24,000 nucleotides of DNA from Endozoicomonadaceae bacterium (GTDB lineage Bacteria; Pseudomonadota; Gammaproteobacteria; Pseudomonadales; Endozoicomonadaceae), in the NCBI GenBank assembly GCA_965261725.1, contig CBDHDU010000047.1, forward strand, positions 88,871 through 112,870. Direction: 5' to 3'. Both the position numbers and the translations under genes were made by a program. Below are positions 4,943 through 21,113 of this stretch, piece after piece (the first letter of the stretch is position 1; the number at the start of each line of letters is the position of its first letter). The notes beneath the pieces were generated by a model. The model had not been told where the DNA came from. It saw only the letters and a program-made list of their open reading frames with translations, and did not search any database.

Positions 4943-6300
4943 GGAATTTTATACTCCGGCAGCGGGTCTGTGCTTTGTCGGTGATGCCCTAAACAAGAAA
5001 ACATCTTTAAAAAAGTCATTGCGTTCTATCAAGAAGCGCCATGGCATCCCTAATATTGATCTGGTTCGAGCTTTTATCGGCCTGTTGGCCTTAGGCAAAA
5101 CTGATTTTGATGCCATTGATAATTATCGCCATGATGATTGGTTCAAGCGCAGCATGGGCATTAAACAAATGCCGTCCGCCAGCCGGCTTCGCCAGCGTTT
5201 TAATGAAGATGCCACCCAACTGATTCCGTTAATTGAAGAAGCGCTTCCCGAACTGTTGTTGGAACTGGGCGCGCCGATCTCTCCGCTTTCAAAAGAACTG
5301 GATCACCTTCAGCATATCCCACTGGATATAGACGTTACTCCGCAAGATAACAGCAGAACCCAAAAAGAAGGTTCTCAGTGGACATACAAACACTTCCATG
5401 GCTTCGCCCCGATTATGTCTTATGTAGGGAAAGAAGGATGGTGCATAGGAGCTGAGCTTCGCCCTGGCTCACAACATTCCCAGAATGATTTTGTACCTTT
5501 CCTGAACACGGTATTGCACAGACTTCGTCGCGTAACCCGGACCTCGGTATTACTGCGACTCGACAGCGGGCATGACGCAGAAGACACTCGCAGAGAGATA
5601 GCGGATCACAGCAATGTTGATCACATAATCAAGCTCAATCCACGCAAGCAATATACCGTTACTGCCTGGCTGCCAACCTTTGAGGAAAAAGGCGTGCAGT
5701 GGGATGAGCTTCGCCCTGGAAAAACCTGTGCGACACTCTCGATCATCCATGAAACCGACTACGGCCAACAACGGCTTATTATCCGTATTATCAAGCGTAC
5801 TACCGACTCGGTTGGTCAGTATTTTTTAGCACCGGACTACGAGCTGGAGGGTTGGTGGACGACACTAGATGAGGCTGAATATAGTGATGATAATGTCATA
5901 TTGCTTTATGAAGATCATGCGACCAGCGAACAGTTTCACAGTGAGTTCAAGACTGACATGGATCTTGAAAGACTGCCTTCAGGAAAATTTGATACCAATG
6001 ATCTTGTAATGTGCCTTGGTGCGGTGGCTTACAACATTTTACGTTACATGGGGCAAACCTGCCTGACCGGCCCTAAATCACCTGTTCGTCACAAAGCGCA
6101 GCGTCGTAGAATTAAGACAGTTATGCAGGAACTGATCTACCAGTCAGCGCGATTATTAGAACGAGGTCGTCAGTTTATTCTGCGTTTTGGTCGTCACAGT
6201 CCCGGATTATCCGCCTTCATGGGGCTCTTTCCTGAAAAACAGCTCTGTTAGCTGATCCTATTCTTTTAACGGTTGAATGGAGAGATGCTGCTTATGCTGG
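4847..6300 (+). mobile_element. IS1380-like insertion sequence (boundaries tentative)
   Basis: Candidate imperfect IRs both start with CC: CCAGTAATAGCAGCAT at 4847-4862 versus the reverse complement of 6285-6300, CCAGCATAAGCAGCAT (13/16). They enclose the transposase ORF. No target duplication was seen, so the boundary call is weak. Confidence 0.4.
4914..6251 (+). CDS. IS1380-family-like DDE transposase
   Basis: 445 aa with a GTG start. The layout resembles IS1380-type transposases: N-terminal xFxxSDxxxTPAAGL, DIDVTP...QKEG...YKHFHGFAPIM...ELRPGSQHS...LRLDSGH, and C-terminal LLYEDHATSEQFHSEFKTDMDLERLPSGKFDTNDLVMCLGAVAYNIL. The family assignment is from memory of the motif order only. Confidence 0.6.
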   Translation: MELKFEQSDTEFYTPAAGLCFVGDALNKKTSLKKSLRSIKKRHGIPNIDLVRAFIGLLALGKTDFDAIDNYRHDDWFKRSMGIKQMPSASRLRQRFNEDATQLIPLIEEALPELLLELGAPISPLSKELDHLQHIPLDIDVTPQDNSRTQKEGSQWTYKHFHGFAPIMSYVGKEGWCIGAELRPGSQHSQNDFVPFLNTVLHRLRRVTRTSVLLRLDSGHDAEDTRREIADHSNVDHIIKLNPRKQYTVTAWLPTFEEKGVQWDELRPGKTCATLSIIHETDYGQQRLIIRIIKRTTDSVGQYFLAPDYELEGWWTTLDEAEYSDDNVILLYEDHATSEQFHSEFKTDMDLERLPSGKFDTNDLVMCLGAVAYNILRYMGQTCLTGPKSPVRHKAQRRRIKTVMQELIYQSARLLERGRQFILRFGRHSPGLSAFMGLFPEKQLC

Positions 6301-6464
6301 CAGGATTTCATTCATATTCAGGGTTGAAATTCCCCAACATCATTTAAATACATGCTGATTTTTTTGACTTTGCTTTACCATTCTCTGGCAAGTTTCAAAA
6401 AAACATAACCCTATTCTGTAGGTTTGAATCCATGGGATGAAAAAGCTTCTCTATAATCAAGAAG

Positions 6465-6827
6465 TCACGGATTCAGGTCTTCAGCAAAGTCGTGTGGCTG
6501 AGGCAACTCCTCCAGAGCTTTGAGAAGAGGCAGAGGAGCAGTCACGGGTAGCTTCTGTAACCGTATCACGGATATATATTGTCTGAATTGTTGCCATGTT
6601 TTTTCAGGAGATAGATAGTAGAAAGGCTTTACATCACAAGGTTCAGAAGTGGGTGAGCAGGATCTTACTGAGATTCCATTTAGAGATTTAAAATGTATAG
6701 GGCACCGTTCTAACGCTGGATAAGTTTTCTGACATTCTACACAGTGATGACTAGCTGATATGGCAGAAGAATATAAGAAATAACTGCTTCCAAGAAAGAA
6801 AGCAAAAAGTAAAATGACTTTTTTCAT
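6465..6827 (-). CDS. Small secreted Cys-rich hypothetical protein
   Basis: The ORF has a clear N-terminal signal peptide (MKKVILLFAFFLGSSYFLYSSAISA/SHH). The ATG at 6827 is preferred over the upstream TTG at 6842. The mature part has 6 Cys, including CVEC. I recognise no family. Confidence 0.45.
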   Translation of the reverse strand: MKKVILLFAFFLGSSYFLYSSAISASHHCVECQKTYPALERCPIHFKSLNGISVRSCSPTSEPCDVKPFYYLSPEKTWQQFRQYISVIRLQKLPVTAPLPLLKALEELPQPHDFAEDLNP

Positions 6828-6936
6828 TGTTATTCGAAACAATCCAGACTGTTTTCAGAAAGCAAACAGAATCCAGAGTAGGTCATAATTTCGAATTAAA
6901 TGTAATCTTGTGATACGCCGTGTTCTATTTTCTTTA

Positions 6937-6971
6937 CATCCGGGCTATTTATTCAATTATTAGCCCGGATG
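6937..6971 (-). terminator. Hairpin downstream of leuA (possible terminator)
   Basis: A perfect 10-bp stem, CATCCGGGCT (6937-6946) / AGCCCGGATG (6962-6971), lies 12 nt after the leuA stop. There is no strong U-tract on the minus strand. Confidence 0.35.
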
Positions 6972-11922: not shown

Positions 11923-11999
11923 GCACCCGTAGCTCAGTTGGATAGAGTACAGGCCTCCGAAGCCTGGGGTCACAGGTTCAAATCCTGTCGGGTGCGCCA
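11923..11999 (+). tRNA. tRNA-Arg (anticodon CCG), CCA encoded
   Basis: The 77-nt sequence GCACCCGTAGCTCAGTTGGATAGAGTACAGGCCTCCGAAGCCTGGGGTCACAGGTTCAAATCCTGTCGGGTGCGCCA folds as a cloverleaf. Acceptor stem: GCACCCG/CGGGTGC. Anticodon loop: CT-CCG-AA. T-arm: CAGGTTCAAATCCTG. It is close to E. coli argX from memory. Confidence 0.95.
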
Positions 12000-12124: not shown

Positions 12125-13279
12125 ATGCTTAATTTCAGTTACCAGAACCCAACCCGTATTCACTTTGGTAAAGGGCAGATTGCCCGTATTGCTGAAGAGA
12201 TTCCGGCAGATGCCAGAGTGTTAATCACATACGGCGGCGGAAGTATAAAAAAGAATGGTACGCTGGATCAGGTGCTGGAGGCGCTGAAAGATCATACGGT
12301 ACTGGAGTTTGGTGGTATTGAACCCAACCCCTCTTACGAAACGTTGATGCAGGCTGTTGAACTGGCACGCAAGGAAAAGATTGATTTTCTGCTGGCTGTG
12401 GGTGGTGGCTCCGTGATTGATGGCACCAAGTTTATTGCAGCGGCTATTCCTTTCGAAGGTGATCCCTGGACGATCCTCAGTGAACGTGCGCCGATTACAA
12501 GCGTTGTTCCTGCCGGTAATGTGCTGACGTTGCCTGCAACCGGCTCTGAAAGTAATTCCGGTTCTGTTGTCACCCGTAAAGAAACGCACGACAAACTGGC
12601 CTTTATGCATCCGCTGGTGTTTCCAAAGTTTGCGGTACTGGATCCGGAAACAACTTTTAGTTTGCCTACGGGGCAATCCGCTAATGGTGTTGTTGATGCT
12701 TATGTGCACGTGATGGAGCAGTACCTGACCTGCCGTGAAAATACCCCGGTACAGGATCGTTATGCTGAAGGCTTATTGCTGACGCTGATTGAGGAAGGCC
12801 CTAAAGTATTGGAGCAGCCTCAGGATTACGGAGTGCGTGCCAGCATTATGTGGACGGCTAACCAGGCGCTGAACGGCCTGATTGGTCAGGGTGTTCCCCA
12901 TGACTGGGCAACTCATATGATTGGTCATGAGATTACAGCCTTGTACGGGCTGGATCATGCGCAAACACTGGCTATTGTTTTGCCTTCTCTGATGGCTGTT
13001 ATGAAGGAACAGAAAGCACCACGCCTGTTGCAATATGCAGAGCGGGTCTGGAGTATCAGTGAAGGCAGTGAAGAAGAGCGTATCAATCAGGCTATTGAAA
13101 GCACCCGGAACTTCTTCGAACAAATGGGAGTGAAGACCCGCCTGTCTGATTATGGGGTCGGCGAAGATGCTGTTGCCGGATTGGTTGAGCAGCTAAAGCG
13201 ACACGGTATGGTTACGCTGGGTGAAAACGGTAATATTACCCCGGAAGTTTCAACAGAAATTCTGCAAAAGTCGCTGTAA
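12125..13279 (+). CDS. yqhD: Iron-containing (group III) NADPH-dependent alcohol/aldehyde reductase, YqhD-like
   Basis: 384 aa. It aligns by eye along its length with E. coli YqhD (NPTRIHFGKGQI...ARVLITYGGGSIKKNGTLDQVLEAL...LEFGGIEPNPSYETLM...FLLAVGGGSVIDGTKFIAAA). Confidence 0.85.
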   Translation: MLNFSYQNPTRIHFGKGQIARIAEEIPADARVLITYGGGSIKKNGTLDQVLEALKDHTVLEFGGIEPNPSYETLMQAVELARKEKIDFLLAVGGGSVIDGTKFIAAAIPFEGDPWTILSERAPITSVVPAGNVLTLPATGSESNSGSVVTRKETHDKLAFMHPLVFPKFAVLDPETTFSLPTGQSANGVVDAYVHVMEQYLTCRENTPVQDRYAEGLLLTLIEEGPKVLEQPQDYGVRASIMWTANQALNGLIGQGVPHDWATHMIGHEITALYGLDHAQTLAIVLPSLMAVMKEQKAPRLLQYAERVWSISEGSEEERINQAIESTRNFFEQMGVKTRLSDYGVGEDAVAGLVEQLKRHGMVTLGENGNITPEVSTEILQKSL

Positions 13280-13354
13280 CACTGATTTCAGTCCTATCCT
13301 GTTGGGAGGTTTTCAAGCCTCCCTCTTCGTAATACAGCATGTTTTGTCTGAATT

Positions 13355-14332
13355 ATGTTCAGTGCGCTGTTACTGGAAAAGCAGAACAATGAAACAGCAG
13401 TCTCGCTGCAGGAACTGGATGAGAGCCAGTTGCCTGCAGGCGGTGTTGAAGTCGCTGTCGAATACACATCGCTTAATTATAAGGACTGCCTCGCAATAAA
13501 AGGCAAAGGTCGTATTGTAAGTCAGTGGCCGATGATTCCCGGTACTGATTTGGCAGGCACTGTTACCCATTCATCAGATCCCCGTTTCTCTGTAGGTGAT
13601 GCCGTACTGGTTACCGGGCATGGTCTGGGGGAACAGCAATGGGGCGGAATGGCTCAAAAAGCCAGAGTAAAAAGTGACTGGCTGATTCCCATGCCATTCG
13701 GACTTGATACCCGCAAAGCGATGATGTTGGGGTCTGCAGGTCTGGCAGCGATACTGGCAGTCTGCTATTTGCAGGCATCAGGTATTACACCTGACAGGGG
13801 GGAAGTATTGGTTACCGGTGCCAGTGGCGGTGTAGGAAGTATTGCTGTTTCATTGTTAAGCAGACTGGGCTATTCCGTTGTTGCACTGACCGGACGCTCT
13901 GAAAATGATTCGTTACTGCAGCACTTGGGCACAATGCGTGTTCTGCAGAGGGGAGCATTAATATTAACAAGTAAGCGACTGGGTGAACCTTGCTGGAGTG
14001 GCGTGGTTGATACGGTGGGTGGCAATGTCCTCTCCGGCTTGTTAAGTCAGATTCAGTATGGCGGAACACTGACAACCTGCGGTCTGGTTGGTGGTGTGAA
14101 GGTTAATACGACAGTACTTCCTTTCGTTCAGAGAGGTATCCGCTTACTTGGTGTTGAAACCAAACATTGCTCGATGGTTAAACGGCAACAGGTATGGGAT
14201 ATGTTGTCTGCACTGGTACCTCTCGAATATTACCAGCATGCCTGCCGAAGCATTTCATTAGGTCGTGTGCCGGAACATGTTGAAAAAATGTTGCAGGGGC
14301 AAATCACCGGGCGCATTGTGGTAAAAACATAA
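13355..14332 (+). CDS. acuI: YhdH/AcuI-family MDR oxidoreductase (putative acrylyl-CoA reductase / quinone oxidoreductase)
   Basis: 325 aa. The N-terminus (ALLLEKQNNETAVSLQELDESQLPAGGVEVAVEYTSLNYKDCLAIKGKGRIVSQWPMIPGTDLAGTV) parallels E. coli YhdH. It also has the VLVTGASGGVGS nucleotide-binding motif. Confidence 0.8.
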   Translation: MFSALLLEKQNNETAVSLQELDESQLPAGGVEVAVEYTSLNYKDCLAIKGKGRIVSQWPMIPGTDLAGTVTHSSDPRFSVGDAVLVTGHGLGEQQWGGMAQKARVKSDWLIPMPFGLDTRKAMMLGSAGLAAILAVCYLQASGITPDRGEVLVTGASGGVGSIAVSLLSRLGYSVVALTGRSENDSLLQHLGTMRVLQRGALILTSKRLGEPCWSGVVDTVGGNVLSGLLSQIQYGGTLTTCGLVGGVKVNTTVLPFVQRGIRLLGVETKHCSMVKRQQVWDMLSALVPLEYYQHACRSISLGRVPEHVEKMLQGQITGRIVVKT

Positions 14333-14359
14333 AAGGTTCTTGGCAAGGGAATATTTTAT

Positions 14360-15343
14360 ATGGCAATCAGGCTGACATTTCTGGGTACTTCGGCAGGGCT
14401 GCCAACCACTGAGCGTAATGTGACGTCGCTGGCATTGGCGAGAGGTGACAGCCGGGACTGGTATATGGTGGATTGTGGTGAGGCCACTCAGCATCAGTTA
14501 TTGCGTACCCGCTACTCAACCTCCCGGTTGCAAATGATTTTTATCACTCATATGCACGGTGATCATATTTATGGTCTGCCGGGATTACTGGCATCAGCCA
14601 GTATGGCAGGACGTGTGGCACCGCTGGTTTTATGTGGCCCGGAAGGTTTACAGGCGTATGTGGAAGCATCTTTGCTGGGCGGAGATATTACTGAACTTCC
14701 TTATGAGTTACGTTTTATGAGAACGGATCAGCCGGGTTTTACCTTCAGGGATAACAATTTTGAGATTACTGCTCATGAGTTATCTCACCGGGTTCCCAGT
14801 TATGCAGCCAGATTTGAAGAGTTAGCTGTGTATGAAAAACTGGATGTGGATAAGCTGGCTGAGCTTGGTGTGCCCCGTGGACCAAAGTGGGGAGTATTGC
14901 AGAAAGGTGGCTCGGTATTACTCGACGATGGACGTGAAGTTTTTTCTGATCAGGTAAAGCAAGAACCGCAACCCGGATGTATTGCAGTAATTGGTGGTGA
15001 TAACGACCAGCCAGAATTATTACATAACGCAATGCAAGGCGCTGATGTATTAGTTCATGAAGCCTCTTTTTCCAAAGAAGTACTGGCGCGAATAGGACCC
15101 GCCTATATGCACAGTACACCGGAGCAGGTCGGTATTGCTGCAGAAAAAGTCGGTGTAAAAAATATTGTTCTGACTCATTTCAGTGGTCGTTATCGCAAAT
15201 ATCCGCGTGATGGTGAGGAAGGCATTGATTCTCTTCGTCAGGAGGCAGAAACAGTGTACGGTGGTCGTATAGAAATGGCTGAAGATTTTACCTGCTGGGA
15301 AGTTGCAGCAGGTGGAATCCTGAATGAAATCAGAAAATCATAA
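14360..15343 (+). CDS. rnz: Ribonuclease Z / RNase BN (metallo-beta-lactamase fold)
   Basis: 327 aa. FLGTSAGLPTTERNVTS, DCGEATQHQLL, ITHMHGDHIYGLPGLLAS (HxHxDH) and the C-terminal LTHFSGRY match the ElaC/RNase Z pattern. Confidence 0.85.
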   Translation: MAIRLTFLGTSAGLPTTERNVTSLALARGDSRDWYMVDCGEATQHQLLRTRYSTSRLQMIFITHMHGDHIYGLPGLLASASMAGRVAPLVLCGPEGLQAYVEASLLGGDITELPYELRFMRTDQPGFTFRDNNFEITAHELSHRVPSYAARFEELAVYEKLDVDKLAELGVPRGPKWGVLQKGGSVLLDDGREVFSDQVKQEPQPGCIAVIGGDNDQPELLHNAMQGADVLVHEASFSKEVLARIGPAYMHSTPEQVGIAAEKVGVKNIVLTHFSGRYRKYPRDGEEGIDSLRQEAETVYGGRIEMAEDFTCWEVAAGGILNEIRKS

Positions 15344-15529: not shown

Positions 15530-15780
15530 GCAAGGATGCGAAATATAACAACAGGGACCCCCCGCCAAAAATAATAATAAAAACGGCAGGGCAAGCAGAT
15601 TACTTTGCAGGATGCTTTTTTGTGGATTGACAGGGAGTGTACCCGGTGGGTTTAAGAAGGTTGTACAAACAGCCCGGCCGCCAGGTGAAAGGACTATCTG
15701 GTAGACCCAGACCATTGCCACACATTGTGTAAAGTAATACGTTTGTTCTTTTAACGGAGCCTTTTGGCTCCGTTTTTTAT
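15530..15780 (+). ncRNA. Candidate sigma-54-dependent sRNA with A-rich (ARN)n tracts (CrcZ-like hypothesis)
   Basis: This non-coding interval lies between the sigma-54 promoter and a strong intrinsic terminator. It contains AAAUAUAACAACA (15541-15553) and CAAAAAUAAUAAUAAAAAC (15566-15584). The only ORF here is an implausible antisense one. The 5' end is inferred, not observed. Confidence 0.3.
15753..15780 (+). terminator. Rho-independent terminator
   Basis: A perfect 9-bp stem (AACGGAGCC / GGCTCCGTT) with a TTTT loop is followed by TTTTTAT. The group IIC intron starts 2 nt later. Confidence 0.85.
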
Positions 15781-16234
15781 TGTGTGCCGAGCATGTTGCA
15801 CAGTTTGGGGGTGAAAGTCCCCTGTCCAGCCAGATGAGGGCGAAGGACTAGCGAAGCACAAGGTTTGTATCGCGAGTTGCAGGCTGAAGGCAGTGTGGAG
15901 CAAAACTGCGAGCTGACGAACAGAAACCGGATACGAGGCTGTCTGCGTGAGGACGAGTCAGCAATTGATGACGAAGTCCCATACTCATCCGGACATTCAG
16001 GCAGTAAATCCGGCAGTTGTGCAGTGAAAGCGGTGTAACTTACCTCGGGAGGTCTGTGTGGTGTCTGATATTTCAGACTGAGATCATCGTAAGGTGATCT
16101 GATCGCCATACAGAAGTCAGCAGACGGCATAGTAACTGGCATACGTCAGTGAAGGCCTGAACGGTACAGAGTGGTGATTAGTTTCTGTTTTCGATACACC
16201 GGACAGCAGACAAGTTCAGCAAACCCTGAAGCTC

Positions 16235-17560
16235 ATGCGAAGTGGTCACGGCGGAACCGGAGGCTGCGACGCGATGAGGGCTGAGGCTGTGTCGGCATCA
16301 CAGGATTACGAAAGCCCGGCGGGTGATACGAGCCTGATGGAGCGTATTGCCAACCCCAATAATCTGACAAGAGCCTTTCAACGGGTTAAACGTAATAAAG
16401 GAGCCGCAGGCATCGACCGTGTGACAGTAGAGGGGCTGTACGCTCATTTACAAGAACATGGTCATGGACTGCGACAGTGTCTTTTACAGGGAGAATACAG
16501 GCCAGTTCCGGTAAGACGAGTACGGATTCCCAAACCAGACGGAGGAGAAAGGCAGCTTGGAATTCCAACCGCCTTAGACCGTATGGTTCAGCAAGCGATA
16601 CAACAGGTGTTGCAGGTTGAATGGGAACCAAGGTTCTCAGCCTTCAGTTATGGGTTCAGGCCGAACCGGTCAGCTCATCAGGCAATCAATCAAGCTCAGT
16701 CGTATATCTGCGAGGGTTACGATTGGGTCGTGGATATTGACCTGTCGAAGTTCTTTGATCGTGTCAGTCATGACCGGCTGATGGCAAAGCTGGCAGTTCA
16801 CATGGACGACAGGGACGTATTGCGTTTAATCCGGCGATTTCTCCAGTCCGGAACCATGGAAAACGGGCTGGTAAAACCGCAAACAGAAGGCGTCCCTCAG
16901 GGAGGCCCATTATCACCAGTTCTTTCTAATATCGTGCTGGATGAACTCGACAAGGAGCTGGAAAAGCGAGGCTTGCGATATGTTCGTTACGCTGATGATT
17001 GTCGGGTGTTCGTGCGCAGCAGAAAGGCCGGCGACAGGGTAATGGTCAGTTTGACCCATTACATTGAAGGTAAGCTGAAGCTAAAGGTTAACGACACGAA
17101 AAGTGCGGTTGAGCGAGCATGGAAGCGGGCGTTTTTAGGATACAGCTTTACCAGAAATGGCAGGAAGACGCTGGCAGATAAAACCTGCAAGCGGTTTAAG
17201 GACAAGGTCAAACAGCTTACCCACAAAGGCGGGCGATCTCTGGAGCAGAGGCTGGAGTCTCTGAATCGCTATTTACGGGGATGGAAGAACTACTTTCGGG
17301 AAGTTGAAACCCGTTCGGAATTCGAGGACTTTGACGGTTGGATCAGGCGACGACTGAGAAGCCTGCTTTGGTATCAATGGAAACGAAGTCCGAAGCGATA
17401 TGCGGAATTGAGGAAGCTGGGAGTCAGTGACCGGGTGACAAGACAAACTGTGGCATCGAGCAAGGGGTGCTGGCGAGTGAGCCGGAGTCCTGCGTTGCAC
17501 ATGGCTCTGCCGAATAGCTGGTTTGATGAATTAGGTTTGATAAGATTATTGGGCGCTTAA
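16235..17560 (+). CDS. Group II intron reverse transcriptase/maturase (outer IIC intron IEP; no endonuclease domain)
   Basis: RT motifs: NKGAAGIDRVT, RRVRIPKPDGGERQLGIPTALDRMVQQA, SYGFRPNRSAHQA, DIDLSKFFD, GVPQGGPLSPVLSN and the YADD catalytic box. Maturase X region: RGWKNYF...WKR. The true start is probably ATG 16274 or 16337 (MERIANPNNL), not 16235. Confidence 0.9.
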   Translation: MRSGHGGTGGCDAMRAEAVSASQDYESPAGDTSLMERIANPNNLTRAFQRVKRNKGAAGIDRVTVEGLYAHLQEHGHGLRQCLLQGEYRPVPVRRVRIPKPDGGERQLGIPTALDRMVQQAIQQVLQVEWEPRFSAFSYGFRPNRSAHQAINQAQSYICEGYDWVVDIDLSKFFDRVSHDRLMAKLAVHMDDRDVLRLIRRFLQSGTMENGLVKPQTEGVPQGGPLSPVLSNIVLDELDKELEKRGLRYVRYADDCRVFVRSRKAGDRVMVSLTHYIEGKLKLKVNDTKSAVERAWKRAFLGYSFTRNGRKTLADKTCKRFKDKVKQLTHKGGRSLEQRLESLNRYLRGWKNYFREVETRSEFEDFDGWIRRRLRSLLWYQWKRSPKRYAELRKLGVSDRVTRQTVASSKGCWRVSRSPALHMALPNSWFDELGLIRLLGA

Positions 17561-17569
17561 CTGGCCGAA

Positions 17570-17599
17570 ACGCCCAGTACGGATCCGCATGCCGGGTGG
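17570..17599 (+). ncRNA. Domain V of the outer IIC intron (30-nt short form, CGC triad)
   Basis: ACGCCCAGU-ACG-GAUC-CGC-AU-GCCGGGUGG. The lower helix pairs 17571-17578 with 17591-17598 (one A.C mismatch). The upper helix is 2-3 bp with a 4-nt loop and a 2-nt bulge (AU). The triad is CGC at 17571-17573. The architecture is the same as the O. iheyensis DV as I recall it. Confidence 0.6.
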
Positions 17600-18115
17600 T
17601 GGTGTGTCATGAGAACAGAGTCGGTCTGTTCGTAACTGTAATTGAGATGGAGGAAGGCCCTTCGGTGGTGGCTTCTGGAAGCGACCACCAAACCACTGTG
17701 AGCTGCGCTGATTAAGAGTCAGGGTGGTGAGCGTCACAGAAAAGGCGTAACAAGATTGCGTCAGGTACGAGATCAGGAGATGAACGCAAGTGAACCATTG
17801 ATGACGTGTCGTAAGCATATACATCGACATCAAAAGTGAGGGGCATCACCACCTCATGATAAGTTCAGGGGTTATCCAGTTACCGCCTGAGCGGTGTCCG
17901 GCACAAAGATGGCATGAACTGATTTCAGGCTCTTTTACGGAACATGAGAACCTGTCGCTCTGGTGTTAAGGGAGCCAGCCGAGTTGACGAACAGCAAGGC
18001 TCTGAGTACCAATACAGGGCACAGGGGCGGATCAGCTCGTAGTAGTGTTGAAGCCTCTGTAATGGCGGTGGAGCGAAGGGGCTGACTTATCCAGTGGATG
18101 GAGTAGATCAACCAG

Positions 18116-19384
18116 TTGTATCTTTGGGATGAATCTATGACAGAAGCAAAACCGTTCACAATTTCTAAAAGGCTTGTCTGGCAAGCCTGGCTGAGAGTGA
18201 AAGCCAATAAGGGAGCCGCTGGTATTGATGGTCAGAGCTTGTCTGACTTTGAAATACATCTTGGCGGTAACCTGTACAAACTCTGGAACAGGATGTCATC
18301 GGGAAGTTACTTTCCTCCCCCCGTCATGAGTGTCGACATCGCCAAGAAAGGTGGAGGCACGAGACCGCTGGGGGTACCGACAGTAGCCGACCGTATTGCC
18401 CAGACCGTGGTGAAGCTAATAATCGAGCCGGTAATGGAACGAACGTTTCATGAAAACTCCTATGGCTATAGGCCGAATCGTTCAGCGCATGATGCGTTGG
18501 CGCTAGCCCGAAAACGCTGCTGGAGACGAGACTGGGTCATTGATCTGGATATCAAAGGATTCTTTGACAATCTTGATCATAAACTCATCATGCGAGCAGT
18601 AGAGCACCACATCAAAGAACCTTGGATATTGTTGTACATCAAACGTTGGCTTGAAGCTCCAGCTGAGGGTGAGCACGAGAGAATAGAGAGAACAAAAGGA
18701 ACCCCACAAGGGGGCGTTATCAGTCCCTTACTGGCAAATCTGTTTATGCATTATGCGTTTGATCACTGGCTTGAGCAAAATATCCGGCACGTCTGGTTTG
18801 AGCGATATGCTGATGATGCGCTGATCCACTGTCGCAGCAAACAGGAGGCGGAATCCATACTGGAAGCAGTAAGAAGTCGTTTACTCGACTGTGGTCTTAC
18901 ACTGCACCCGGAAAAGACGAAGCTGGTTTACTGCATGGATGAAGACAGACCGGAAAAGCATGAAAACACCTCTTTTGACTTTCTTGGTTACACCTTCCGT
19001 CCAAGGATGGTCCGAAACCGGTATGGGAAGTTCTTTGTCAGCTTTCTGCCTGCAATAAGCAAAGCCTCGGCCCAGCATATTCGGGATAGGATAAGAGAGT
19101 TGGCTATTCCCACCAAACGATCACTGTATTCTCTTGAAGAGCTTGCAAAGCTGATCAATCCATTCGTTCAGGGCTGGATAAATTACTTTGGGAAATTTTA
19201 TCCCTCGGCAATGAGAAGAGTCCTGAGCTATGTGGAAGCAACACTGGTTCGCTGGGCTATGGGCAAATGCAAGAAATTGAGGGGCCGTAAGAAGCGGGCA
19301 GCTTCCTGTTTGGGGCGAATCGCAAAAAGGGCTCCGTGGTTAATGACACATTGGCGAGCAGGCTGTGTGTCAGCGGTTGGATAA
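18116..19384 (+). CDS. Group II intron reverse transcriptase/maturase (inner intron IEP; no endonuclease domain)
   Basis: RT motifs: NKGAAGIDGQS, GGGTRPLGVPTVADRIAQTV, SYGYRPNRSAHDA, DLDIKGFFDN, GTPQGGVISPLLANL and YADD. Maturase region: QGWINYFGKFY. The likely true start is ATG 18137 (MTEAKPF). Confidence 0.9.
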   Translation: MYLWDESMTEAKPFTISKRLVWQAWLRVKANKGAAGIDGQSLSDFEIHLGGNLYKLWNRMSSGSYFPPPVMSVDIAKKGGGTRPLGVPTVADRIAQTVVKLIIEPVMERTFHENSYGYRPNRSAHDALALARKRCWRRDWVIDLDIKGFFDNLDHKLIMRAVEHHIKEPWILLYIKRWLEAPAEGEHERIERTKGTPQGGVISPLLANLFMHYAFDHWLEQNIRHVWFERYADDALIHCRSKQEAESILEAVRSRLLDCGLTLHPEKTKLVYCMDEDRPEKHENTSFDFLGYTFRPRMVRNRYGKFFVSFLPAISKASAQHIRDRIRELAIPTKRSLYSLEELAKLINPFVQGWINYFGKFYPSAMRRVLSYVEATLVRWAMGKCKKLRGRKKRAASCLGRIAKRAPWLMTHWRAGCVSAVG

Positions 19385-19387
19385 GAA

Positions 19388-19421
19388 GAGCCGGATGAGG
19401 GGAGACTTTCAAGTCCGGTTC
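19388..19421 (+). ncRNA. Domain V of the inner intron (canonical 34 nt)
   Basis: GAGCCGGAU-GAGGG-GAGA-CUUUC-AA-GUCCGGUUC. It has a 9-bp lower helix with the AGC triad, a 5-bp upper helix, a GNRA (GAGA) tetraloop and a 2-nt AA bulge. It begins 4 nt after the RT stop codon. Confidence 0.85.
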
Positions 19422-19462
19422 TGTGAGCAGCTGAAGGGGAGGTTCCTTCGGTTGACTCGACT

Positions 19463-19497
19463 GGGAGGAGCGTAGCTGTGAAGCTACGCCCTATCCC
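19463..19497 (+). ncRNA. Domain VI of the outer IIC intron
   Basis: GGGA-GGA-GCGUAGCU-GUGA-AGCUACGC-CCUA-UCCC. The hairpin has 12 bp and a GNRA loop. Unpaired A 19493 on the 3' strand is 8 nt from the proposed 3' splice site (GAU|, 19500). Confidence 0.6.
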
Positions 19498-19624
19498 GAT
19501 TTGGGCATTATGAATTTTTAGCCTTTAACTTTCCTCTCTTTCACTCCATACAGTCTACTCTTTAGCTTTCAAGCTACCCGTCAGGGTAACCCTCAAAAGA
19601 TGCATATAATTTATGAGGTTTGAA

Positions 19625-20668
19625 ATGCTACGAATGAAGAACAAAACGTTTAGCGTTTTATTATCCCTCCTTCTTGTATTTCCATTTCTAAATGTCCATG
19701 CCAAGACAAAAAATGAGCTTGCAGAAGAATGGATTCAGCAACTTTACATTCAAGGGATGGCAGGTAGAGCAGTTATTTACAGACTGCGGGCAGAGCTGTG
19801 TGCTGCTGATGTTGCTGTTGAAAAGGAAGTTATTGAGAGAATAGTCAGAGCTGCGGAGTGTGGCGCTCATGCATTAATGGACAATTTTTTTGAAGCTCGG
19901 GTGGCCTTGGCGAAGGAGCACTTCGGAAGCATAGAGGACTTCTCTAAGCCCTATCTAGATGCACATAAGCATTATGTTGGGGAAACGCATAAATATCGTA
20001 TTCCTCTTAGGAATGTGGATCAGGAGTTAGGATTTGCAGAGAATTTAACGCTAAGAGAGTATTTTTTTGGTTATTTACAGCGATATGGAAACTCATCAAG
20101 AAGCGTCTATCCTGCTGTTTTAAAAATGGTTGCTTTATGTGAGGCCTCAGTTTCACAAGCCGAGTATGATGTTGACCAGGAAGAGAAACTAACTATTGAA
20201 TTGATCAGGTATGAAGAACTACTTAAGTTGAAACAAATTCTGTTAAAAGAAGCAGTGCCACAAGTATTTGAGCAGTCAAAAACACCAGAAGTTTGTTTGG
20301 CTGCAGGGGCAATAACTAAGTTAAATTCATTTGTACGTCACCCAATAACTGTTGAATTTGTTTTAAAGATTGATGATTCTGAATTCACTGCAGCTATGGA
20401 TTGCTGGAAAGATCATCAACAGTGGCCTCAGGGAGGGCCATGCTCAACGCTCATAGGCATGAGAGAAAAAGTAAACCAACTTATATCAATTCTGGATAAA
20501 GAAGAGTTTAAATTTGAACAAATTATCCCGGCAGGAGGTGGCAGGTTTTCATCTGCCAAGTGGGCAGAAATGGATTCAGTGGAGGAGCTTAATCGATACC
20601 AGAAGAGTTTTTCTGAATATCTAAAAGAATCACGCAAGAAATATGCTCCTAAGCCCTCGGAGCAATAG
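19625..20668 (+). CDS. Secreted hypothetical protein (signal peptide), no recognised family
   Basis: A long ORF in an AT-richer stretch. The signal peptide is MKNKTFSVLLSLLLVFPFLNVHA/KT. The start at 19625 is preceded by GAGG with 6-nt spacing; the ORF track starts at 19613. Confidence 0.55.
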   Translation: MLRMKNKTFSVLLSLLLVFPFLNVHAKTKNELAEEWIQQLYIQGMAGRAVIYRLRAELCAADVAVEKEVIERIVRAAECGAHALMDNFFEARVALAKEHFGSIEDFSKPYLDAHKHYVGETHKYRIPLRNVDQELGFAENLTLREYFFGYLQRYGNSSRSVYPAVLKMVALCEASVSQAEYDVDQEEKLTIELIRYEELLKLKQILLKEAVPQVFEQSKTPEVCLAAGAITKLNSFVRHPITVEFVLKIDDSEFTAAMDCWKDHQQWPQGGPCSTLIGMREKVNQLISILDKEEFKFEQIIPAGGGRFSSAKWAEMDSVEELNRYQKSFSEYLKESRKKYAPKPSEQ

Positions 20669-20765
20669 CGGATTTATCAATCTAGCTGGAGAGTAGAAGC
20701 TACTTTGCCATCGCCCCTCACCCGCGTATAGTGGAAAATACGCATAAGCCAATGAGGGACTTGCG

Positions 20766-21113
20766 ATGAGCGAAATGGACGAGCTCTACCTTTGTTTGCT
20801 GTACCTGAGAAGTACCTGCGAACGTCTGGCGGCAACACTGGTTTGCTACCTTGCCGCCAGACCCAATGAGGAGGGCGATTCGACAATCCTTGTCCCGGTT
20901 ATGGTATCACTGCAATCAAAACAGGAAAAAATAGCCCACCGGCTCGATACCTGCTTTCCCGATTATATGGAAGAAAAGCGCTGGCATGAAGCGGATGTCA
21001 TGACTGCCCAGTTGCTTAATTTGAGTGATGAATCCCGCAGCGAACTCCAGCAATTGTGTATGACTGAAATGCAGACTTTGCAGGCGGTCGGTTCACTTTT
21101 CCCGGAACGATAA
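20766..21113 (+). CDS. Small acidic hypothetical protein (115 aa)
   Basis: This is the only sizeable ORF in the interval. It is on the same strand as, and 97 nt downstream of, the secreted protein gene. GAGGGA lies 7 nt upstream of the ATG. I recognise no motif. Confidence 0.4.
   Translation: MSEMDELYLCLLYLRSTCERLAATLVCYLAARPNEEGDSTILVPVMVSLQSKQEKIAHRLDTCFPDYMEEKRWHEADVMTAQLLNLSDESRSELQQLCMTEMQTLQAVGSLFPER

Follow-up and report, generated by a model that had tools for sequence, protein, structure and literature searches.

A stretch of 24,000 nucleotides (nt) from an Endozoicomonadaceae bacterium (contig CBDHDU010000047.1, positions 88,871 to 112,870; here called the window) contains a real bacterial twintron: one complete group II intron lies inside another on the same strand, and its precise removal restores the outer one. 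The inner intron is IIB-like, with an AGC triad in its domain V (DV), and occupies the linker between DV and domain VI (DVI) of a class C (IIC) intron that is itself associated with a terminator. This is a new target site for a lineage that belongs, or lies close, to known intron-homing introns. An earlier note on the window had proposed the same anatomy, which is supported at every boundary; its coordinates all hold to the base. The structure is read here as a two-level nest of retroelements made by retrohoming, with a probability of about 85%. What the analysis shows directly is the anatomy and its recurrence in other genomes, a host that is restored exactly when the insert is removed, covariation of exon-binding sites (EBS) with intron-binding sites (IBS), and open reading frames (ORFs) that are intact and under selection.

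Two complete introns, one inside the other

The outer element is a class C intron: its reverse transcriptase (RT) lineage, its hairpin target, the CGC triad of its shortened DV and the bulged A of its DVI all fit this class, to which the earlier note had also assigned it. Class C introns recognise DNA stem-loops, and the stem-loop target here is an intrinsic terminator (15753-15781; this and all features below are on the forward strand) consisting of a 9-bp hairpin (15753-15774) and a U-tract. The hairpin folds at -16.5 kcal/mol, a terminator scan agrees, and hairpin and T-run end 7 nt before the outer 5' end at 15782 (GTGTGCCGAGCATG), a start confirmed by alignment with homologues. A strong hairpin lies 5-9 nt upstream in all six outer-family Endozoicomonas copies examined (that of the window and five others, at L001, L003, L009 and L081; L-numbers denote genomic loci fetched as encoding relatives of the outer or inner RT).

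The 5' segment of the outer intron (15782-17601) holds domains I to III (DI-DIII), domain IV (DIV) with the RT ORF, and DV, and it extends 2 nt into the DV-DVI linker. Together with 19462-19500 it makes up an intron of 1859 nt, and its ribozyme outside the ORF (~533 nt) is small, as in class IIC. Rfam models match at 15866-16038 (RF02001, 137 bits) and 16078-16157 (RF01998, 62 bits). The RT/maturase ORF (16235-17560; 441 aa) has an intact YADD motif and matches the RT structure of GsI-IIC over its full length (6ar1, 450 bits) as well as 7uim (351 bits). Intron RTs of many Bacillaceae genomes are 50-55% identical to it, and the named close relatives of both RTs of the twintron are all from Endozoicomonas, which suggests that the source bacterium is itself a member of this gammaproteobacterial genus. 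A megablast search with the region gave no match in E. coli genomes and just short, unrelated intron pieces in plasmids.

The inner intron (17602-19461; 1860 nt, 5' end GTGTGTCATGAG) is complete. RF01999 matches 17649-17766 (106 bits), and RF00029 (59 bits) covers 19386-19461, ending exactly at the 3' end of the intron. The RT/maturase ORF (18137-19384; 415 aa, YADD intact) is a 100% match to P0121 (415 aa). Pfam finds only RVT_1 and GIIM in each of the two RTs, and an endonuclease domain was found in neither the 441-aa nor the 415-aa protein. Inner DV and DVI (19388-19461) are likewise as described earlier: DV (19388-19421) is 34 nt long with an AGC triad and a GAGA loop, and DVI has a bulged A at 19455 and ends in ...CUCGAC. 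Classes IIE and IIF have 5-nt DV loops, and the 4-nt loop of the inner intron therefore argues against both; this loop and the 419-aa relatives in S. meliloti and Bradyrhizobium make class D/IIB3 a suspected assignment. The ratio of nonsynonymous to synonymous substitution rates (dN/dS) is 0.09-0.10 for the inner RT, and for the outer RT it is 0.078 against the other twintron copy (L081) and 0.055 against an uninterrupted copy (L001); both ORFs are thus under purifying selection.

The inner intron is inserted directly after ...GCATGCCGGGTGGTG, 41 nt past the stop codon of the host RT. Its homing site (17587-17601) comprises IBS2 (GCAUGC, 17587-17592) and IBS1 (GGUGGUG, 17595-17601), with U19462 as IBS3. 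EBS2 (GCAUAU, 17815-17820) lies in a terminal loop of DI, and EBS1 (CAUCACC, 17844-17850) lies in the loop of a hairpin whose stem covaries (GAGG/CCUC versus GGAG/CUCC). EBS1 pairs with IBS1 at 7/7 positions and EBS2 with IBS2 at 5/6, and a U stands at position +1. From these pairings it follows that the target is the 3' strand of the host DV plus the two-base DV-DVI linker. The base G17599 gives better EBS1-IBS1 pairing and at the same time loses a DV base pair.

The outer DV (17570-17599) is 30 nt long and has a CGC triad (17571-17573), a 4-bp upper helix, a GAUC loop and a UG bulge (17590-17591). The outer DVI and 3' end (19462-19500) consist of a helix (19462-19498) with a GNRA cap (GUGA) and a bulged A at 19493, ending in ...CCCGAU. 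Both were tested on an alignment of 15 sequences (the joined outer intron of the window and 14 homologues). In this alignment 96.5% of cells are paired, and compensatory changes occur in 13 of the 27 pairs (DV, 6/12; DVI, 7/15); none of 500 shuffles reached the observed values, and models slid along the alignment were only 42-50% paired. A first model of the outer DV, with a 2-bp upper helix and a CA bulge, was dropped, since the homologues support the 4-bp helix and the UG bulge.

The earlier note had predicted that excision of the inner intron in silico would leave a contiguous DV-J5/6-DVI and an intron of 1859 nt, and had asked for uninterrupted copies of the outer intron, whose DV-DVI might have differed from the joined sequence. 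Such copies were found, and they carry exactly the joined sequence. The joined outer intron aligns unbroken to an uninterrupted E. numazuensis copy (query 30-1888, equal to window 15782-19500), and in all there are eight Endozoicomonas copies without the insert that match it over its whole length; it is colinear over positions 1-1859 with the copies at L168 and L169 (86.7%), L170 (77%) and L001 (81%). The DVI that follows the inner intron in the window is present in all 14 uninterrupted homologues, each of which reads GGTG(G/T)TG and then TGGGAGG across the junction, and similarity stops right after ...CCCGAT (CCTATCCCGAT), which is window position 19500. The insertion point is unambiguous because the bases flanking the two ends of the insert differ. 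Because of the colinear copies and the covariation, the outer element is a bona fide 1859-nt intron split between G17601 and U19462. In the Rfam comparison that had also been proposed, the DI-DIII (D1-D4) models and the inner RF00029 fell into place, but RF00029 gave no match to the outer DV even at E<=10; it gives none in the uninterrupted copies either, so this miss is uninformative.

Other members of the outer family vary in completeness. In E. numazuensis, a copy at L009:3790-5409 is defective and lacks the segment equivalent to window 15886-16128 (part of DI). Two outer-type IIC introns stand head to tail at L003:3549-6267 and 6262-6958, the second starting with GTGTGCCGAGCATG directly after the ...CCCGAT of the first and being internally deleted; this arrangement suggests that the second used the DVI hairpin of the first as its stem-loop target. 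At L003:7085-7161 there is also an orphan IIB-like DV-DVI (RF00029, 40 bits). A 1.07-kb "insert" in the L003 copy was rejected, as it is a run of N, that is, a scaffold gap.

Recurrence of the insertion and a second host intron

The nesting is no isolated event: homing to the linker recurs in several genomes and in two lineages of host intron. Another Endozoicomonas carries the same twintron at a locus unrelated to that of the window (L081, which is the locus of the closest named homologue of the inner RT), with an outer intron 86% and an inner intron 84.5% identical to those of the window and with flanks that share no similarity. Inner introns occupy two of the 10 Endozoicomonas IIC copies examined.

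Furthermore, relatives of the inner intron at L082-L084, L165 and L166 (81-83% identical) sit in a different host intron, here called host B, whose ribozyme is of RF02005 type and has no DNA similarity to the outer intron of the window. The insertion site is nevertheless equivalent: it lies ~43 nt past the host RT stop codon, after ...CCGGCUCUG and before UGAGGGG..., the start of the DVI hairpin. In L082-84, EBS1 (CAGAUCC) and EBS2 (GCGAGU) pair with their own target at 6/7 and 6/6 positions, versus three and one mismatches with the target in the window. L081 has GCGUAU as its EBS2, and each EBS2 variant pairs with its own IBS2, whereas cross-combinations of EBS with the IBS of the other host give 3-6 mismatches. 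This covariation of predicted pairings across two host lineages is the signature of base-pairing-guided retrohoming. In L165 (3468-7028) and L166 (1990-5325), two inner-type introns stand in tandem in one host-B DV-DVI linker, one copy being partly deleted in each case, which implies that the site was entered repeatedly.

Host B spans L084:1505-3468 and 5326-5363 and is also found in L082, L083, L165 and L166. It is an unusual intron: the 5' end is UUGCGAC where GUGYG would be expected, RF02005 scores 144-147 bits on its DI, RF00029 misses its DV (CCGGAUGCCUUAAUUGGGCUCGUCCGG), and its 439-aa RT has no GIIM match in Pfam. A repeated ATCCGGCCACYGATTCCGGTAACATCCGGCCACCC element lies on both flanks of host B in L084. 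Genes beside the twintrons in L082:5834-8013, L165:7317-9248 and L166:6662-9248 are eukaryote-like and include three tandem C2H2 zinc-finger ORFs, a large ankyrin/F-box/RING protein and a WD40 protein.

Relatives of the inner RT beyond Endozoicomonas mostly point to another site in host introns. Among 80 sampled metagenomic relatives (51-62% identity), 20 of the 30 with at least 1.5 kb of upstream sequence have a fragment of another RT just upstream on the same strand, compared with none of 49 loci in a IIC control family. These metagenomic introns split the host RT right after YADD, with a target consensus of ...CGNTAYGCNGAYGAYT before the intron and TYGT... after it, so that +1 is a T. Relatives of this type (here RYADD-type) have AGUCGUU as EBS1 and GCGUA as EBS2, and both pair with the RYADD target. 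A twintron of the same kind is present on pSymA of S. meliloti ml59 (L167, CP140947.1:141525-147742), where a second RT ORF is interrupted at its RYADD site, after ...GTGCGCTATGCCGACGACT, by an intron that starts at locus position 1963 and encodes a 419-aa protein; the interrupted ORF is annotated just as 'reverse transcriptase domain-containing protein'. The 419-aa RT relatives of S. meliloti and Bradyrhizobium are 56% identical to the inner RT of the window. Metagenomic loci also contain head-to-tail tandems (...CTACTCACC followed by GTGCGCCACGAA) and nests with an inner-type host RT (L143:~736, L123:2287-5951, L089, L113 and L144), which resemble the multi-level nests described for Methanosarcina.

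The RYADD-type insertion site (...GGTATGCNGATGACT) is not that of the inner intron of the window. Judging from the target and architecture of its 51-62% relatives, the inner intron nonetheless appears to belong to, or lie close to, the published RYADD-homing clade. A crude neighbour-joining tree groups the Endozoicomonas copies in a single clade that falls among the RYADD-type relatives. L154 (RT 56% identical to the inner RT) has an EBS1 and an EBS2 that pair at 7/7 and 5/5 positions with the DV-DVI site of its own host. This locus and L156, which is likewise inserted between DV and DVI and shows the same pairing with its own host, are placed elsewhere in the tree, and linker targeting therefore probably arose more than once. 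L142 was not counted as a further linker insertion, as its predicted EBS1 fails to pair with the predicted 5' flank and its boundaries are uncertain. An IBS2 core is common to the 3' strand of the IIC DV (..CGUAUGCCGG..) and the RYADD site (..CGNUAUGCCGA..), and the EBS2 of L081 is nearly the same as the RYADD-type GCGUA. A switch from RYADD to DV would thus have needed mainly a new EBS1.

Proposed retrohoming, predicted splicing order and rival explanations

In the proposed mechanism, a class C intron would have inserted behind the terminator hairpin (15753-15774). A ribonucleoprotein of the endonuclease-less IIB-like intron would later have reverse-spliced into the DNA copy of the outer intron between G17601 and U19462, guided by pairing of EBS2 and EBS1 with the 3' strand of the host DV and the two-base linker and of EBS3 with the U at +1. 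Priming would have taken place at the replication fork, as expected for RTs without an endonuclease domain. The lineage would have been retargeted in Endozoicomonas from the RYADD-coding site to the host DV through a change of EBS1, with a similar EBS2 kept because both targets contain (G)UAUGC. As the introns share a strand, both would be present in one read-through transcript. In group II introns the stretch that joins DV to DVI usually measures 2-4 nt and positions the branch site. Here the host RT ORF is intact, but DV and DVI are 1.86 kb apart, and because of this distance the inner intron most likely must splice before the outer one, as the earlier note had also argued, rebuilding DV-J5/6-DVI. 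How the insertion came about, which intron splices first and whether the two are active at present are matters of inference.

Several observations weigh against this account. Three of the 12 DV pairs of the window's outer intron are noncanonical (A17570xG17599, A17576xC17593 and A17579xC17588) where close relatives have A-U, and its ribozyme may be weakened or impaired by these mismatches; C17588 also breaks one EBS2-IBS2 pair. EBS1-IBS1 pairing is imperfect in other copies, with a C-U mismatch in L081 and a U-C mismatch in L082-84. The neighbour-joining tree is crude and has no support values, and membership in the RYADD-homing clade is judged from the target sequence and architecture that relatives at 51-62% RT identity share with M.a.I5, P.l.I2 and B.th.I3.

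The explanation that there is no nesting, and that 15782-17601 is a 3'-truncated fragment abutting an independent intron or an assembly artefact, was among the outcomes that the earlier note had considered, and it is refuted. Apart from the failure of RF00029 to call an outer DV, which it shares with the uninterrupted copies, nothing in its favour was found; the 39 nt past the inner intron match the DVI and 3' end of the outer family exactly and share its covariation, the joined sequence is colinear with uninterrupted copies, and the same architecture is present in independent assemblies. It is unlikely that the insertion killed the outer intron of the window and left a decaying relic in which just the inner intron is alive. 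In favour of this reading, the noncanonical DV pairs are found in the window copy only, and defective members of the outer family exist (L009 without part of DI, and the internally deleted second intron of L003). However, A.C mismatches are tolerable in helices, the outer RT is full length with YADD intact and low dN/dS, the DI-DIII Rfam scores match those of uninterrupted copies (137/62 versus 133/59 bits), and DVI and the two termini are intact.

Another rather unlikely alternative is that the composite moves as a unit: after one old invasion, the 3.7-kb twintron would have spread by the mobility of the outer intron, through reverse transcription of an outer lariat with the inner intron unspliced, leaving the latter mostly a passenger. 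The same pair of introns at unrelated loci (the window and L081, where the two RTs have similar synonymous divergence, 0.80 in the outer and 1.04 in the inner) fits such spread, as do the composites of L083 and L084, which are 99.87% identical over 3867 nt with different flanks. Yet L082 and L084 have inner introns with 99.9% identity although the host introns are ~5% apart, the inner intron of L081 is nearer to those of host B (87%) than to that of the window (84.5%), and the inner tree does not follow host type. Retargeted EBS loops in a second host lineage and tandem inner introns at one site are also at odds with a passenger role, and the DV/DVI split should hinder excision of the outer intron while the inner one is present. 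In addition, the source assemblies contain more copies of the inner RT than of the outer RT: six members make up the cluster of the former, whereas P0001, the outer RT, forms a cluster by itself and just one other copy was listed (P0002, 96% identical). These features point to an independently mobile inner intron. The rival is partial and non-exclusive, and composite and independent routes may both operate.

Beyond retrohoming into the linker, the sublineage may have become a dedicated hyperparasite of ribozyme cores, a proposal to which we give even odds. In at least two unrelated lineages of host intron it would home perpetually to the functionally frozen 3' strand of DV and the linker, would have reached this site from RYADD via the (G)UAUGC IBS2, and would make splicing and mobility of the host conditional on the inner intron.

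The twintron is intergenic, behind the terminator. Upstream in the window are a tRNA-Arg(CCG) gene (11923-11999), with no integrase adjoining, and after it genes for an Fe-dependent alcohol dehydrogenase, a Zn-type alcohol dehydrogenase and a metallo-beta-lactamase-fold protein (12125-15343). On the 3' side are two ORFs without a Pfam match (19613-21113) and a DcuA/DcuB transporter gene.

Significance and comparison with known systems

To our knowledge, intron-homing group II introns have so far been known to target the codons of the RT active site (RYADD) alone. Here an intron of this kind is directed instead at ribozyme domain V, the second catalytic sequence that its host keeps invariant, which suggests that intron-on-intron parasitism follows whatever the host cannot mutate and that a target switch is possible via one changed EBS loop. 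If the hyperparasite proposal is true, the insertion sets up a built-in hierarchy between two retroelements, as it splits DV from DVI and spares the host RT ORF. The twintron could also serve as a natural system in which DV and DVI lie 1.86 kb apart and would be rejoined by another ribozyme, useful for studying the role of the DV-DVI linker in IIC branching, and it offers a ready pair of compact endonuclease-less RTs and ribozymes whose target is defined and programmed by base pairing. The twintron habit may help to explain the large group II intron loads of Endozoicomonas genomes, such as the 36 reported for E. montiporae.

The earlier note had judged the arrangement rare. The site and the host are indeed unusual, but bacterial twintrons are already known from Thermosynechococcus, Trichodesmium, Wolbachia and Photorhabdus (P.l.I2), and archaeal ones too, and the inner intron falls in or near a published intron-homing lineage. 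The searchable literature, which leaves aside most papers in subscription journals, contains no report of a twintron hosted by a IIC intron, of recurrent homing to the DV-DVI linker or of an intron retargeted between two lineages of host intron. The outer intron is like the class C introns GsI-IIC, O.i.I1 and B.h.I1, with which it shares RT lineage, a small ribozyme, a short CGC DV and a site a few nucleotides 3' of a terminator or stem-loop. Dai & Zimmerly (2003) is a further source on RYADD-homing introns.

The closest published counterparts of the inner intron are B.th.I3, M.a.I5, UA.I3 and P.l.I2, related endonuclease-less 'B-like' introns of 1.8 kb whose insertion at AGGTATGCTGATGACT (RYADD), within the RT ORF of another intron, gives rise to twintrons (Tourasse & Kolsto 2008, PMC2504315). 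M.a.I5 is from Methanosarcina acetivorans, P.l.I2 from Photorhabdus luminescens and B.th.I3 from Bacillus thuringiensis (PMC2504315). Like them, the inner intron is ~1.8-1.9 kb long, encodes a protein with RT and X domains and no endonuclease, has an IIB-like RNA with EBS1 and EBS2, lives in group II introns and recognises IBS1/IBS2, and its 51-62% RT relatives use exactly the published site, ...GGTATGCNGATGACT followed by T. Unlike them, the window's inner intron and its Endozoicomonas relatives are found in the DV-DVI of the host ribozyme, so that the host RT ORF is whole and the catalytic core is split, and its EBS1 is CAUCACC rather than AGUCGUU, the named introns being compared by description.

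In Thermosynechococcus elongatus, the ORF-less TeI3 lies inside TeI4 (Mohr et al. 2010, PMC2882425), and identical inner introns in diverged outer introns mark independent insertions, as L082 versus L084 do here. TeI3, however, sits in DIV with a start codon of the host ORF on either side and is, like its partner, a CL/IIB intron, whereas in the present twintrons the inner intron encodes an RT, the host is IIC or of RF02005 type and the site is the DV-DVI linker. In Trichodesmium erythraeum, sequential splicing of T.e.I7/T.e.I8, inner intron first, has been shown by experiment (Pfreundt & Hess 2015, PMC4649490). That system likewise consists of two nested, ORF-containing group II introns of different lineages in a bacterium, but it lies in a protein-coding gene at a single conserved locus with the inner intron in domain I of the host, whereas the present twintron is intergenic behind a terminator, uses the DV-DVI linker and is recurrent.

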